Positions 4,288-63,048 of a stretch of DNA of 64,000 nt are shown here, one piece after another. The position numbers were made by a program, and so were the translations under genes. Source of the stretch: Escherichia phage vB_EcoM_PTE-Eco09; the sequence record PQ306574.1. The stretch is one strand, 5' to 3'. Under the pieces are notes generated by a model. The model ran no database searches and was not told the DNA's origin. It saw only the letters and a list, made by a program, of their open reading frames with translations. Positions within the stretch are counted from its first letter, which is position 1; each line of letters opens with the position of its first letter.

Positions 4288-5489
4288 ATGTATTTTCTGT
4301 CATGTGAGCGAGTGGGTGATAAGATCTACGAGCGTTATATTGATGATGCTGGACAAGAACAAGAGCGTTACGTTGAATATACGCCAACTTTATTTCATCA
4401 TGCCGCGCCTGGTATGGTTACGAATTATAAAGATATCTATGGCAAGCCTTGCATTGCTAAAAAATTCCCATCTATGAACGAGGCCAACAAATGGCGTAAA
4501 AAGATGGGAGAAATGGGGCAGGAGGCACTAGGGATGGATGATTTTATCATCTCCTATCTGTCTGATACGTATAAAGGCGAGATTCGATATGACCGAAATA
4601 AAATCCGTGTAGCATGGGTTGATATCGAGGTCACTGCCCCAGAATTTCCTAAACCAGAAGAAGCGAAATATCCTATCGATGCAATTACGCATTATGATTC
4701 CGTACATGATCGTTTCTTTGTATTTGACTTGAAAGGAAAAAACGGTGAAATCTGGGAAGCAAGCAAGTCTATTCTTCGACCTGATATTGTAGAGCGCGTT
4801 GTTTATAACGTCTATGACACAGAAGATGAATTGCTGTTAGAATACATCCGATTCTTTGAGGAAAACCGACCCGTTGGTTTCACTGGCTGGAACACAGAAA
4901 CATTCGATATTCCATATATCATTAAACGTATCAGTAATAAGTTCGGAAGTAGAACCGCTAACCGTCTAAGCCCGTGCGGTAAGATTAAATCCAGAATCTC
5001 ACAGGATGATTTTGGCAACGAGCGTGAAGCATTTACGATCATGGGGATCGAAAGCCTTGATTATATTGACCTGTACAAGAAATTTAGCTTTACGACTCAA
5101 CCAACATATGCGTTAGATTATGTTGCTGAATATGAGACAGGAATCGGTAAGGTTGATTATGATGGTCCGTTAAAGAAATTGCGTGATGACAACCATCAAC
5201 TTTACATCGATTATAACATCGGCGACGTTGATCGTGTGCTGGCGATTGATAAAAAGCGTGGATTTATCGATCTTGTGTATAGTCTATGTTTCTATGCAAA
5301 GATTAAATTTAACCATGTTTATAACCCGATGAAAGTATGGGATGCTATTATCTTCGGATCTCTGAAAGCTGAGGGTAAAGTAGTACCGGAAAATAAGATA
5401 CAGCCTAAGCAGACTTATCCTGGCGCATTTGTAAAAGAACCTGTGCCGAATGCTTACCGCTGGATGATGAGTTTTGACCTTACTTCCCT
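4288..5489 (+). CDS. 43: DNA polymerase gp43, exon 1 (N-terminal/exonuclease half, ends within the SLYPS motif)
   Basis: MYFLSCERVGDKIYERYID matches the T4 gp43 N-terminus; FDIEV exo motif. The frame hits a stop 7 nt after the proposed 5' splice site. Confidence 0.9.
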
Positions 5490-6602
5490 AAACTGATATG
5501 GGGCTTTCACTGGTGACAGTGATCGAATAACCTGCTTAATTGCTGGGAAATCTCTAAGGAGACAATCAGCAGCAGTTGCATTTTGAGCTAACGTGTCTTA
5601 TAATGTATATAAATATTGATATACATTGGAGGCGCGAGATGAAAGACATTTTAAGAAAGTACGAAATACATAACGAGGAAGCATTAAACGACTACATTAA
5701 ACTGGTGTCTAATCCGTATCAGGGTGAAGAATATTCCGAGGTGCATCATATATGCCCGAAGTCAATGTTCCCTGAATATCTGTTAGATAAATGGAATCTT
5801 GTTAGGCTTAAGTTTGAAGACCACGTAGAGGCGCATCGGTTATTGTGATTAATATTCAATAACGGTGAATGCAAGAGAGCATATGCTTTCATCTCTAGAG
5901 GATCTTATGACGATAAAGTGAAGGCGTTAACCAAAGATGCATTCGCTGGAGACAATAACCCAGCCAAGCGAGAGGAAGTTAGACTGAAAATATCCGAAAA
6001 CAAGACCGGAAAAGCCAGAACCGATATGAGCGGAAAGAAGTATTTCGGGGCTGATGAGGACATTATACGAAAAGGTCTTGATTCTATGGCAGAAAAGCTA
6101 AAGAATACTGTTATCGTTAAGGATAAGGAAGGAAATCGGTTTAGAGTTAGTTGTGATGATCCTAGATATGTTTCCGGTGAGTTAGTATCATTTAATGCTG
6201 GAGAGAAGCGCGAAAATTCAGCGTCTAAACGACCGGAAGTTATGAGTAAAATAATGTCAAAACGTAATGAAACTTATGCTAAATTTGCAAGTTTCACATT
6301 TGATGAAATGGTGAATTTTCTTGTTGAAGCACATAATTCAGGAAAAGAGATCTTTGGTAAGAAGAAACCTTTTGCCAAGAATTATAGCGGATACTGTAAG
6401 AGAACCCCGTTTGATCAAAATGAGCTTAAAGATGCAGTTGTTCAACGACTATCGAAAGGGTAACGAACCGAGTAGAGTAGAATCAAGCGATTCGAAATGG
6501 CAGGATTCTCTATGAGAATGTGATATAGTCTGATCTACATGGTGACATGTAGCAGTTCGCAAGAGAACGGGCGCGGGAGTAGCGAACCGCGCTGAACATA
6601 TG
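5490..6602 (+). mobile_element. putative group I self-splicing intron in gene 43
   Basis: U at 5489 can pair with G5500 (P1: CCCU/GGGG); terminal G at 6602; P10 pairing GAUAU (5495-5499) with exon 2 GUAUC (6603-6607). Core-like elements AAUUGCUGGGAAA, AAUCAGCAG and GAUAUAGUC; GNRA hairpins. Joining the exons restores TSL-YPSIIRQVNISPETI. Confidence 0.65.
5639..6463 (+). pseudogene. intron-encoded HNH homing endonuclease with NUMOD3-like C-terminal region, interrupted by an in-frame TGA (5846-5848)
   Basis: HNH-like motif EVHHICPKS...NLVRL...HVEAH in the first 69 codons; the same frame continues after the TGA into NUMOD3-like NPAKREEVRLKISENKTGK. RBS GGAGG before ATG 5639. Confidence 0.6.
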
Positions 6603-8079
6603 GTATCCATCAATCATCCGTCAGGTTAATATTTCGCCGGAAACAATCGCCGGATCTTTTGATGCTGCACCGATGCACGAGTATATCAATAAAACTGCCC
6701 CGCGTCCGAGTGATGAGTATTCTTGCTCTCCTAACGGATGGATGTATAGAAAAGATATTCACGGTATCGTACCGATTGAGATTAAAAAGGTATTCGATCA
6801 GCGTAAGCAGTACAAAAACATGATGTTGGCATGTGATCGCAATGCTGAACTCTGTAAAGCGATTCTACACGATGAAAATCATGTTTATGGGGGAACCATT
6901 AGCTATAGCGTTGAAGTACGTCACGACTTTGATGAAGCGTTTAAATCGATGCTTTCTGAATTAAGTAAAGATGCCTTAGAGAAATTGCTGGAAGAATGTA
7001 AAGACGAGTCGATCTTGTGCAATACAAACCAGCTTTCTCGAAAAGTTTTGATCAACTCCCTTTATGGTGCGTTGGGGAATCCTAAATTCCGTTTTTATGA
7101 TCTCCGTAACGCTAGTGCGATCACCTTGTTTGGTCAGCTTGCAATTCAGTGGATTGAGCGTAAGATTAACGAATACTTAAACGAGCTTTGCGGAACAACC
7201 GATTTTGCATATGTTCGTTATTGTGATACTGACTCCGTTTATGTGCTGGTTAACAATGTTGTTGATAAGGTTGGCGGGGAAGACCGTTTCGACGATACCG
7301 AAAAACTTGTTGACTTCCTTGATAATTTCGGTAAACATCGAATGGAACCTATTATCGACAAGGGATATCGCGAGTTATGCGAGTACATGAACAACTATGA
7401 GCACTTGATGTTTATGGACCGTGAGGCAATTGCTGGTCCTCCGTTGAAATCTGCGGGTATCGGTGGATTCTGGACTGGCAAAAAGCGTTATGCTCTTAAT
7501 GTTTGGGATATGGAAGGAACGCGCTTTGCTGAACCTAAGCTAAAAATCATGGGCTTGGAAACGCAACGTAGCTCCACCCCTAAAGCATGTCAGAAATCAC
7601 TGAAAGAATGTATTCGCCGTATGTTGCAGGAAGGTGAAGAGTCATTGCAGGAATACTACGGTATTTTTGAGCAAGAATTTAGAAAACTTGATTATCTTGA
7701 GGTTGCTGCGGTATCATCTGCAAACAACCTACAGAAATACAGCGATTCAAACGGGTATCCGATTAAGGGTTGTCCGTATGCGGTTAAGAGTGTATTGTGT
7801 TATAATCGTAATGCTCGAAAATTCGGACTAGATCCAATTCGTGAGGGCGAGAAGGTTATGATTGTACCGCTGAAAGATCGAAATCCGTTTGGAGAAATCT
7901 GTTTTGGTTGGTTGTCCGGTACTCGTATTCCTCCAGAAATTGAATCAGAGGTGTTAAAGTGGTTAGACTGGCCTTTGTTGTTTAATAAGACTTTCGTCAA
8001 ACCACTGGAGAACATTACCACGGCTGCAAAGCTGCAATATGAGAAAGTTGCTTCTCTGACTGACCTGTTTGACATTTAA
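6603..8079 (+). CDS. 43: DNA polymerase gp43, exon 2 (polymerase half)
   Basis: Frame is open from 6583 and encodes YPSIIRQVNISPETIAG upstream of the first Met (6673). Contains YGALG, DTDS motifs; C-terminal SLTDLFDI resembles the clamp-binding tail. Confidence 0.9.
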
Positions 8080-29071: not shown

Positions 29072-29218
29072 ATGGTTAAAGTTAATGTTATCGAAGTTGC
29101 ACTGTACGACGCTGGAATCTTCCTGAATGAAAAAGAAGCTGCTGTGCTCGACGAACTGAAAACTGTTTTTGTTCCTGTAGTAGAAGACGTTGAAGCAATC
29201 AAAAATCGCTTCTCGTAA
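29072..29218 (+). CDS. hypothetical small protein
   Basis: 48-aa ORF with RBS GGAGG. Confidence 0.35.
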   Translation: MVKVNVIEVALYDAGIFLNEKEAAVLDELKTVFVPVVEDVEAIKNRFS

Positions 29219-29321
29219 ACTGTCCCGCGAAGCATTCGATATGATTGACCCGGTTTTCAAAGTTATGCACGAATGCGCGGTGATGATGACCGAAGAAGAA
29301 GCGAAAAATTTCTAAAACTGG

Positions 29322-38227: not shown

Positions 38228-38250
38228 AGTATTTATAGAATGTTAACAAA
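38228..38250 (-). promoter_or_regulatory. T4-type late promoter (TATAAATA) upstream of gene 36
   Basis: Minus strand reads CTATAAATACTC about 40 nt upstream of ATG 38196. Confidence 0.5.
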
Positions 38251-43346: not shown

Positions 43347-43928
43347 TTGTGTGAGGTGTTTGTTGTGGCAAAAACAAAATTTTGGGATATCGAGACACAG
43401 AAAGCGATAAAAGGTAGATTCTATCATGTCGATGGAATATTATACCATTTAAAGGATTCTGTAGCTGCTGGATTCCGAAAAGAAGGGTCCATATACAAAA
43501 AAGGTGATGTGGTAAGGGTATGTCTCCATAAAGAAGGATATTTATACTTTACATTTTACAACAATGGTCATAAACTTAATCTGTTTGTACATAGAGTTGT
43601 CTGGTTTTTAGAGTATGGTACTCAGGTTGAACGAATAGATCACATAGACCAAGACAAAACTAACAATAGACCGTCAAACATGAGAGAAGCAACCGAACAG
43701 CAAAATCAGTTTAACGTCTCAAAGAAAAAGGCTTGCCATAGCAAATATAAAGGTGTATCATTATCACCAAGCAAGAAAAAGCCGTGGAAGGCGTATATTG
43801 TTATCAATCGAAAGAATATACATCTAGGATACTTTGAGACAGAAGTTGAGGCGGCTAAGGCTTATGACCGTGCAGCACATGAAATAGTTGGCGAGTATGC
43901 TTATTTAAATTTTCCAAAAAGAGGATGA
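43347..43928 (+). CDS. free-standing HNH homing endonuclease with C-terminal AP2-type DNA-binding domain
   Basis: HNH_3-like HRVVWFLEYG...ERIDHIDQDKTNNRPSNM; AP2-like YKGVSLSPSKKKPWKAYIVINRKNIHLGYFETEVEAAKAYDRAA. No in-frame ATG; start is TTG 43347 or GTG 43356/43365. Confidence 0.7.
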   Translation: MCEVFVVAKTKFWDIETQKAIKGRFYHVDGILYHLKDSVAAGFRKEGSIYKKGDVVRVCLHKEGYLYFTFYNNGHKLNLFVHRVVWFLEYGTQVERIDHIDQDKTNNRPSNMREATEQQNQFNVSKKKACHSKYKGVSLSPSKKKPWKAYIVINRKNIHLGYFETEVEAAKAYDRAAHEIVGEYAYLNFPKRG

Positions 43929-62741: not shown

Positions 62742-63048
62742 ACAAGTTGATAATATCGCACTTCGTGAAGCACTAAAGAAAATGTTTTCGGTCGGTACTC
62801 ACTCTTTTCAGTTTACTAAGAAAGATGGTACTGTCCGTGAGATGATCGCCACGCGAGATCCGGCACTGATGCCGTTTGAAACATACGAAAAGTGGTTAGT
62901 TCCGAATGTTGAAAAACCGCGTAAAGAATCAGAAACATCTTTGCCAGTATATGAAATTGCAGTTGAAGGTTTCCGTAGTTTTGGGCTTGATAGTCTGATT
63001 AATGTAGACGGGCTGACTCCAGCGCAGATCGTCGAAATTTATAAATAA
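62728..63048 (+). CDS. hypothetical protein
   Basis: 106-aa ORF. Confidence 0.45.
   Translation: MIMTEQVDNIALREALKKMFSVGTHSFQFTKKDGTVREMIATRDPALMPFETYEKWLVPNVEKPRKESETSLPVYEIAVEGFRSFGLDSLINVDGLTPAQIVEIYK

Follow-up and report, generated by a model that had tools for sequence, protein, structure and literature searches.

The open reading frames (ORFs) for the homing endonucleases I-TevI and I-TevII, as well as I-TevIII, lie in peripheral loops of phage group I introns, within early or middle genes of DNA metabolism, and their expression, like that of segB and Aeh1 mobE, is controlled by a late promoter set in a hairpin that sequesters the ribosome-binding site (RBS) on read-through transcripts (PMC2988022). 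The accepted rationale is that ribosomes are kept off the intron core during splicing of the host pre-mRNA (PMC2988022). I-TevI also represses its own late promoter, by binding to an overlying sequence that is similar to the homing site, and its DNA-binding domain alone mediates this autorepression (PMC2988022). I-TevIII is an intron-encoded HNH endonuclease with active and defunct alleles in close phages; it is given as intact in RB3, and as truncated and inactive in T4 (PMC2988022, Table 1; PMC2790892). In phage JSE, a gene 43 intron with a truncated endonuclease gene has already been noted (Petrov et al. 2010, PMC2993671). For phage phi1, the same source gives no endonuclease encoded in an intron. 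The subject of this analysis is the gene 43 intron of Escherichia phage vB_EcoM_PTE-Eco09, contained in a stretch of 64,000 nucleotides (nt) from sequence record PQ306574.1, the whole of which is referred to as the window. A real and recent nonsense mutation has probably inactivated a conserved Mob-type HNH endonuclease gene, which is carried by this intron behind a hairpin that would gate its expression.

The locus shares with the I-Tev systems the position of the ORF in a peripheral intron loop and a predicted late promoter within an RBS-sequestering hairpin. It differs from them in the host gene, which is gene 43 rather than td, nrdD or nrdB. I-TevI and I-TevII are GIY-YIG enzymes, whereas the predicted catalytic module here is a Mob-type HNH module. 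The likeness to I-TevIII extends to the occurrence of intact and broken alleles of an intron-encoded HNH enzyme in close phages; the T4 allele of I-TevIII was truncated by a deletion, whereas a point nonsense mutation is present here. JSE has the same intron at the same site, with ~99% identity in the shared parts, and has the hairpin, the RBS and the first 32 codons in common with the window. Its ORF is shortened by a deletion of 650 bp (about 5733 to 6383 in window positions, at AAGAAT microhomology), and it reads TATAGATA at the late promoter; unlike JSE, the window has an ORF of full length that is broken by one base.

The ATG at 5639-5641 opens a frame of 274 codons that runs to the TAA at 6461-6463, and the sole in-frame stop within it is the TGA at 5846-5848 (codon 70). 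The preliminary description of this DNA had given the same frame, and the sequence and its translation agree with it. All of the features of the locus lie on the + strand. The N-terminal part of the ORF (5639-5848; 69 codons and the TGA) holds the entire HNH motif (nt 5738-5836), and the C-terminal part (5849-6463; 204 codons and the TAA), which is presumed to bind DNA, contains the NUMOD3-like motif and the C-terminal helical domains. The stop falls four residues past H66, and the truncated product would therefore retain the catalytic motif and lose all else.

Nine relatives were compared (MIZ4, ECD7, JK32, G5211, Cognac, G2494, kvi, ELT4 and JEP8), all of which are annotated with an intact 825-nt coding sequence (CDS) of 274 amino acids at the same place. 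In the alignments, codon 70 is TGC or TGT (Cys) in 9/9 relatives and the TGA is private to the window; position 5848 is C in eight relatives, T in JK32 and A in the window alone. The preliminary description had suggested that related phages be inspected for a sense codon at this point, and Cys is what all nine have. C70 was likewise present in 15/15 sequences read from a 39-member cluster at 90% identity. In a broader set of 43 family sequences, with identities as low as 25%, residue 70 varies and may be C, L, V, S, W, Y or A. Comparison of the intact copies with one another gave 22 synonymous changes and 7 non-synonymous ones, indicative of purifying selection on the intact ORF. The private changes of the window's intron are R48L, the stop at C70, three synonymous changes, and a 1-nt deletion (CATAATG to CATATG). 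A further substitution, T142I, is private among the nine phages, yet is common to the metagenome alleles P0050 and P0056, both of which have C70; the window allele therefore represents a genuine separate lineage.

The variability of residue 70 bears on the possibility of a leaky UGA, at which the near-cognate tRNA-Trp would occasionally insert Trp70, so that full-length enzyme would be made in trace amounts and the stop would attenuate a potentially toxic nuclease. Trp is present at this position in several homologues (P0027, P0035, P0039 and P0043), so that the insertion of Trp should be tolerated, and basal read-through of UGA is appreciable in E. coli K-12. The stop is nevertheless present in one genome only, with a sense codon in all other family members, and it is followed by U; UGAU is reportedly the strongest UGA termination context in E. 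coli (Poole, Brown and Tate 1995). No tRNA genes, including suppressor tRNA genes, were found in the window, and the tRNA gene count given for RB49-type genomes is 0 (PMC2993671). A leaky stop is, on this evidence, quite unlikely. That read-through of UGA70 would act as a third brake on a toxic nuclease, besides the late promoter and the RBS hairpin, is very improbable; if true, it would show a homing endonuclease that is attenuated in nature by a stop codon.

The reading of the N-terminal part as HNH-like, made in the preliminary description, was borne out by the family alignment, by structure prediction and by profile comparison. Among 43 homologues, E34, H36, H37, P40, H62 and H66 are invariant and N53 is present in at least 90%, which corresponds to an HH...N...H...H motif. 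AlphaFold places strands at residues 33-37 and 54-58 and a helix at 59-68, as in a beta-beta-alpha fold, with predicted local distance difference test (pLDDT) scores of 95 (69-residue stub) and 89 (full-length protein). The hhalign comparison of the family profile with MobC of phage PST gave a probability of 99.0% (E=4.9e-18, residues 12-138), a tblastn match to the T4-family Mob endonucleases was found at E=1e-9, and the PHROGs search returned phrog_12434, annotated as 'HNH endonuclease', at E=5.7e-131. MobC is classed as a member of the HNH family (Edgell, Gibb and Belfort 2010, Table 1; PMC2988022). The homology to the T4-family Mob endonucleases is the decisive link in the HNH assignment; sequence comparison and structural modelling point clearly to a Mob-type HNH endonuclease as the ORF product, with activity that is predicted.

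The homology to MobC covers the N-terminal ~130 residues. The C-terminal halves differ, with weak I-HmuI-NUMOD-like and NUMOD1 signals in MobC and a weak NUMOD3 signal in the window protein. Unlike the Mob genes, which are free-standing, the window ORF is intron-borne; its RBS-sequestering hairpin is comparable to the control described for Aeh1 mobE (PMC2988022). A G-x2-N-P-x-K...K-I-S-x3-K-x-G pattern is conserved in the family and forms the NUMOD3-like motif at residues 104-125 (nt 5948-6013). The NUMOD3 profile (PF07460) reached E=2e-4 in 1/43 homologues. The conserved pattern warrants the label 'NUMOD3-like' at most, and the NUMOD3-like repeats of the preliminary description are putative. 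Sequence and profile searches of PDB chains gave matches at chance level only. Foldseek analysis of the 69-residue stub placed HNH nucleases among the nearest structures, every one of them at E>1.

The window consists of DNA of an RB49-like T4-type phage (genus Krischvirus). Positions 5400-6700 gave 11 full-length matches among phage records, with an identity of 96.8-98.8%, and a separate 24-kb part of the window was about 96-97% identical to RB49-type genomes. The genes at the locus follow the order 45, 44, 62, regA, 43 and uvsX-like, which is the same in annotated relatives. Exon 1 of gene 43, which encodes a PolB DNA polymerase, spans 4288-5489 (aligned to the ELT4 CDS 4323-5531), and its 3' end, ...GAC CTT ACT TCC CT (D L T S L-), lies within polymerase motif A. 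Exon 2 spans 6603-8079 and begins with G TAT CCA TCA ATC ATC (-L Y P S I I), so that the intron splits motif A as DLTSL|YPSII. In RB49, where gene 43 has no intron, the sequence is gac tta aca agt ctg tat cca tca (D L T S L Y P S), and the putative homing site in this intron-less gene reads ...GACTTAACAAGTCTGTATCCATCAATC... In-silico splicing of 4288-5489 to 6603-8079 gave a stop-free gp43 of 892 amino acids reading ...SFDLTSLYPSIIRQVNISPET..., which is equal in length to the gp43 of RB49 (gene of 2679 nt). Over the last 11 nt of exon 1, the window and RB49 differ at six bases, all of them synonymous, as is expected beside a homing-endonuclease site and for P1 pairing. In the annotation of these genomes, gene 43 should be joined over 5490-6602, and the window ORF should be marked as a pseudogene.

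The intron itself comprises 1113 nt (5490-6602) and, by its sequence, is a group I intron that is predicted to be self-splicing. Rfam model RF00028 matched the 3' core in the window with 33.2 bits (E=2.7e-6), and matched the ORF-deleted copy of JSE over the full model (positions 1-253) with 42.9 bits (E=1.9e-9); both scores are under the gathering score of 50, and that of the window is lowered because the 825-nt ORF occupies the P6 loop. P1 is formed at 5486-5503 by CCCU|A (5486-5490) and UGGGG (5499-5503), with a duplex fold of -6.4 kcal/mol and in agreement with the Rfam alignment of JSE. The 5' splice site follows U5489, which makes a U.G pair with G5500 (GGGG 5500-5503 / CCCU). A P10 pairing is possible between GAUAU (5495-5499) and GUAUC of exon 2 (6603-6607; duplex fold of -3.1 kcal/mol), and the last intron base is G6602. 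The location of the ORF inside a gene 43 intron, as first described, is thus upheld by RF00028, P1, the terminal G, P10 and the 892-residue splice product.

The 5' strand of the P6/P6a helix (5572-5589) pairs with 6423-6441 (duplex fold of -18.1 kcal/mol) and closes the loop that contains the ORF; the Rfam alignment of the JSE copy likewise assigns an insertion of the size of the ORF to the P6 loop. The intron core sequence GUUCAACGACUA (J6/7-P7, 6440-6451, from the Rfam alignment) doubles as 3' coding sequence of the ORF, and together with its neighbours (6440-6463) it encodes the last codons, VVQRLSKG. The ORF of I-TevI similarly enters the intron core at its 3' end (PMC2988022). VVQRLSK is conserved because the ribozyme core GUUCAACGACUA encodes it, and C-terminal conservation in the protein family is highest here. 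When ten homologous loci were scanned with Rfam, the intron model was found at E<0.01 in just two, the model being mostly missed because the ORF interrupts it. The intron ends with CATATG (6597-6602) in the window and with CATAATG in the nine relatives and JSE; this private deletion sits 2-3 nt ahead of the terminal G. As a further observation, ~40 nt around 6440-6463 recur with 100% identity in the introns of Acinetobacter, Providencia and Proteus phages that are unrelated.

Upstream of the ATG, an exact 9-bp inverted repeat is present (AATGTATAT at 5602-5610 and ATATACATT at 5619-5627), as the preliminary description had stated. The stem extends through GUGUCUU (5593-5599) and GAGGCGC (5629-5635), with one bulged A at 5600, and in the minimum free energy (MFE) folds this gives an RNA hairpin of 17 bp (5593-5635) with an 8-nt loop (5611-5618). 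The MFE of the 45-nt hairpin is -17.5 kcal/mol, a value attained by only 0.25% of the 45-nt segments on this strand. The 5' arm and loop contain TATAAATA, which matches the T4-type consensus for late promoters exactly and lies 23 nt ahead of the ATG. The promoter had originally been reported at 5607-5614 and the hairpin as abutting the RBS; the motif is present, but at 5608-5615, and the hairpin is present, but its stem encloses the Shine-Dalgarno sequence GGAGG (5628-5632), which lies in the 3' arm, six bases 5' of the ATG. The predicted probability that the Shine-Dalgarno sequence is unpaired is 0.06 in the read-through RNA, compared with 0.43 when the upstream sequence is shuffled, and 0.93 in an RNA begun 6 nt past TATAAATA (near 5621).

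Among the nine close relatives, TATAAATA is kept in seven, and ELT4 and JEP8 have TATAGATA, which is also the promoter sequence of JSE. In Cognac, the change A5602G retains the stem pair as G.U. The motif is not over-represented in the window (5 copies, with 5.4 expected). All five copies are in sense orientation, 23-226 nt upstream of a gene start, a placement that fits functional late promoters. The other four copies, at 2242-2249, 38230-38237 (-), 43539-43546 (-) and 63040-63047, precede gene 44, two tail-fibre-region genes and a 107-amino-acid ORF, and by sequence these are likely to be late promoters as well. A second, imperfect inverted repeat is present at 5589-5599 / 5643-5653 (TAACGTGTCTT / AAGACATTTTA, 82% complementary) and could give rise to an alternative structure, in which codons 2-5 of the ORF are paired to the base of the 5' hairpin arm.

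The upstream regions of the window and of ten divergent homologues (11 loci) were then compared. An exact TATAAATA was present 17-35 nt before the ATG at 7/11 loci including the window (6/10 divergent homologues), and three further loci have the one-off variants TGTAAATA, TATTAAATA and TCTAAATA. At 9/11 loci, the MFE fold is a hairpin in which the motif occupies the 5' arm or the loop, while the Shine-Dalgarno purines are paired in the 3' arm, and the hairpin stem sequences differ from locus to locus. The T4-like switch proposed in the preliminary description gains from both results, in that the stem includes the RBS and the layout recurs with different sequences in divergent homologues. An I-TevI-like switch of late promoter and RBS hairpin in this family of gene 43 introns is therefore supported, at the level of sequence comparison and RNA folding.

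The region next to the hairpin resembles the exon junction. The sequence TTTTGAGCTAACGTGTCTTAT (5581-5601) agrees with the junction TTTTGACCTTACTTCCCT|GTAT at 17/21 positions, with one gap; taken alone, this similarity is weak (p about 0.08 against shuffles). The promoter of I-TevI, too, is overlapped by a sequence similar to the homing site (PMC2988022). When the junction of each divergent homologue was compared with its own upstream region, the best local match fell at the equivalent place in 9/10 (L011, L013, L014, L016 and L097-L101), with per-locus shuffle p-values of 0.0005-0.13. The mimic usually continues into TATAAATA, such that the promoter's TAT coincides with the Tyr codon TAT, and in L100 and L101, which have deviant exons, the mimics track their own exons. 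An earlier test on a shorter upstream region was not significant (p=0.27), and the 95-nt region was used thereafter. As this stretch also contributes to P6a and to the hairpin's 5' arm, the constraint on the mimic could have another cause. By analogy with I-TevI, the mimic is a candidate operator for autorepression, which we regard as a lead.

The mimic, through its overlap with the promoter region, would also suit a two-piece gene, in which the 69-residue HNH stub and a separately initiated C-terminal fragment reassemble, or in which the fragment persists as a repressor of the late promoter, as the autorepression by the isolated DNA-binding domain of I-TevI might suggest (PMC2988022). An in-frame GTG at 5918 opens an ORF of 181 codons that could supply such a fragment. 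It has no workable Shine-Dalgarno sequence, as the nearby AGAGGA ends 15 nt upstream; the split is present in one genome only; and none of five possible fragment proteins was recovered from the public protein sets by an exact look-up. A two-piece gene is extremely unlikely, and neither read-through nor a two-piece function has positive support.

Several results weigh against the interpretation of a recent inactivation of a conserved, hairpin-gated HNH gene. No HNH profile of Pfam or NCBIfam matched the protein at E<=1 or the 43 homologues at E<=0.01, NUMOD3 (PF07460) was sub-threshold over residues 112-125 (11.5-12.4 bits, E=0.15-0.3; cut-off of 20.4), and whole-protein fold searches returned nothing significant. 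The ORF is intact in ELT4 and JEP8 behind TATAGATA, so that the exact promoter consensus is not indispensable. Relaxed constraint was not detected on the window branch, which has 3 non-synonymous changes (stop included) and 3 synonymous changes (Fisher p=0.32 relative to the intact copies). Finally, the TGA allele is a singleton, with no second copy in a 15-billion-protein set, IMG/VR, the JGI metagenomes, GTDB or E. coli genomes; the DNA pattern across codon 70 matched only ECD7 (TGC) in the JGI metagenomes, IMG/VR and GTDB genomes, and had no match in the E. coli genomes searched. The negative HNH profile result is explained by the T4-type MobC, which likewise has no Pfam HNH hit, the Mob subgroup lying outside the profiles. 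The preliminary description had made its reading depend on profile similarity to HNH or NUMOD3, and what was found is mixed: no Pfam HNH match and a sub-threshold NUMOD3 signal, together with homology to MobC and to the PHROGs family.

The singleton status of the allele, in every collection searched, also raises the possibility that the TGA arose through an error of sequencing or assembly, or by mutation when the sequenced stock was propagated in the laboratory, in which case the natural phage would have an intact Cys70 and a working endonuclease. The same intron has a second private oddity in the 1-nt deletion near its 3' splice site, and another small gene of the window has a +1 indel relative to ELT4 (a hypothetical gene at 29072-29315, corresponding to ELT4_106, which is 243 nt and intact in ELT4; the insertion causes a frameshift and two internal stops). 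The change at codon 70 is, however, a substitution and not an indel of the type typical of consensus errors. When ~70 ELT4 genes were compared with the window, setting aside those with no hit or a partial hit, the endonuclease ORF and this small hypothetical gene were the only ones interrupted, and the assembly is therefore not error-ridden. The allele also has three synonymous changes and the T142I that it shares with independent metagenome sequences, and loss of the endonuclease is common in the family (the JSE deletion, and one homologous locus, L097, without an in-frame start). Given that a substitution is involved, that the assembly is clean and that the allele has genuine lineage markers, an artefact of sequencing or propagation is a possible but less probable source, and we consider it unlikely overall. 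We infer that the stop is biological rather than an error.

Under the interpretation of a genuine nonsense inactivation, the P6 loop would carry a modular enzyme with an N-terminal HNH module, a NUMOD3-like linker and helical DNA-binding domains. The intact enzyme of the relatives would cut an intron-less gene 43, such as that of RB49, in a mixed infection, and the repair of the cut allele would copy the intron in. On the long early/middle pre-mRNA of gene 43, the 17-bp hairpin would hide the Shine-Dalgarno sequence, and late transcription from TATAAATA would start near 5621 and give an RNA that lacks the 5' arm, with the RBS free. In the window, a single C/T-to-A change would have converted Cys70 (TGC) to TGA just past the last HNH histidine. 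The product would be a 69-residue catalytic stub without the DNA-binding half, and the endonuclease would be dead; the intron would nevertheless still have to splice. The window would then represent an early stage of the decay cycle of a homing element, and the 650-bp deletion of JSE a later one.

The locus completes a natural series within one genus, from the empty site (RB49 and most Krischvirus) through the intact element (ECD7, MIZ4, JK32 and others) and the one-base knock-out (the window) to the deletion (JSE). This series is the prediction of the homing-cycle model and could be used in mixed-infection experiments, in which the window phage and ECD7, near-isogenic apart from the endonuclease, would serve as donors. 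The comparison of loci would extend the regulatory design of I-TevI, that is, a late promoter within an RBS-sequestering hairpin, possibly with a homing-site-like operator, to an uncharacterised HNH family whose genes lie in gene 43 introns across several T4-like genera. The element belongs to a well-described kind, and the current understanding of such elements is unchanged.

The intron was present with an intact ORF in 11 of the 66 matching phage records (10 phages) and in the deleted version in the two JSE records; the rest have the exons only. Homologues at 41-65% identity were found in Pectobacterium phage POP12 and on metagenome contigs; each lies where the exonuclease part of a T4-like gene 43 meets the polymerase part, and the junction is at the same S-L|Y-P position wherever both exon ends are readable. 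Full-length homologues at 33-57% identity are present in the DNA polymerase genes of POP12, Vibrio phage vB_VmeM-32, Dickeya LIMEstone-like phages and Salmonella Vi01-like phages; unlike the window copy, these are all intact, and they are uncharacterised. POP12 shares with the window the S-L|Y-P junction of gene 43 and has TATAAATA 24 nt before the ATG, and the Ackermannviridae copies are in a different polymerase gene context.

Two observations concern individual homologous loci. In L097, neither ATG, GTG nor TTG occurs in frame where the intron ORF should begin, behind AGGAGA and TCTAAATA, and this may be another independently inactivated copy. In the metagenome contigs L013 (3417-3752), L014 (3521-3751) and L016 (3804-4079), gene 43 downstream of the intron is called only in the form of short ORFs of 76-111 amino acids, followed by unrelated small genes, which could reflect a further split of the gene, a second insertion or a misassembly.

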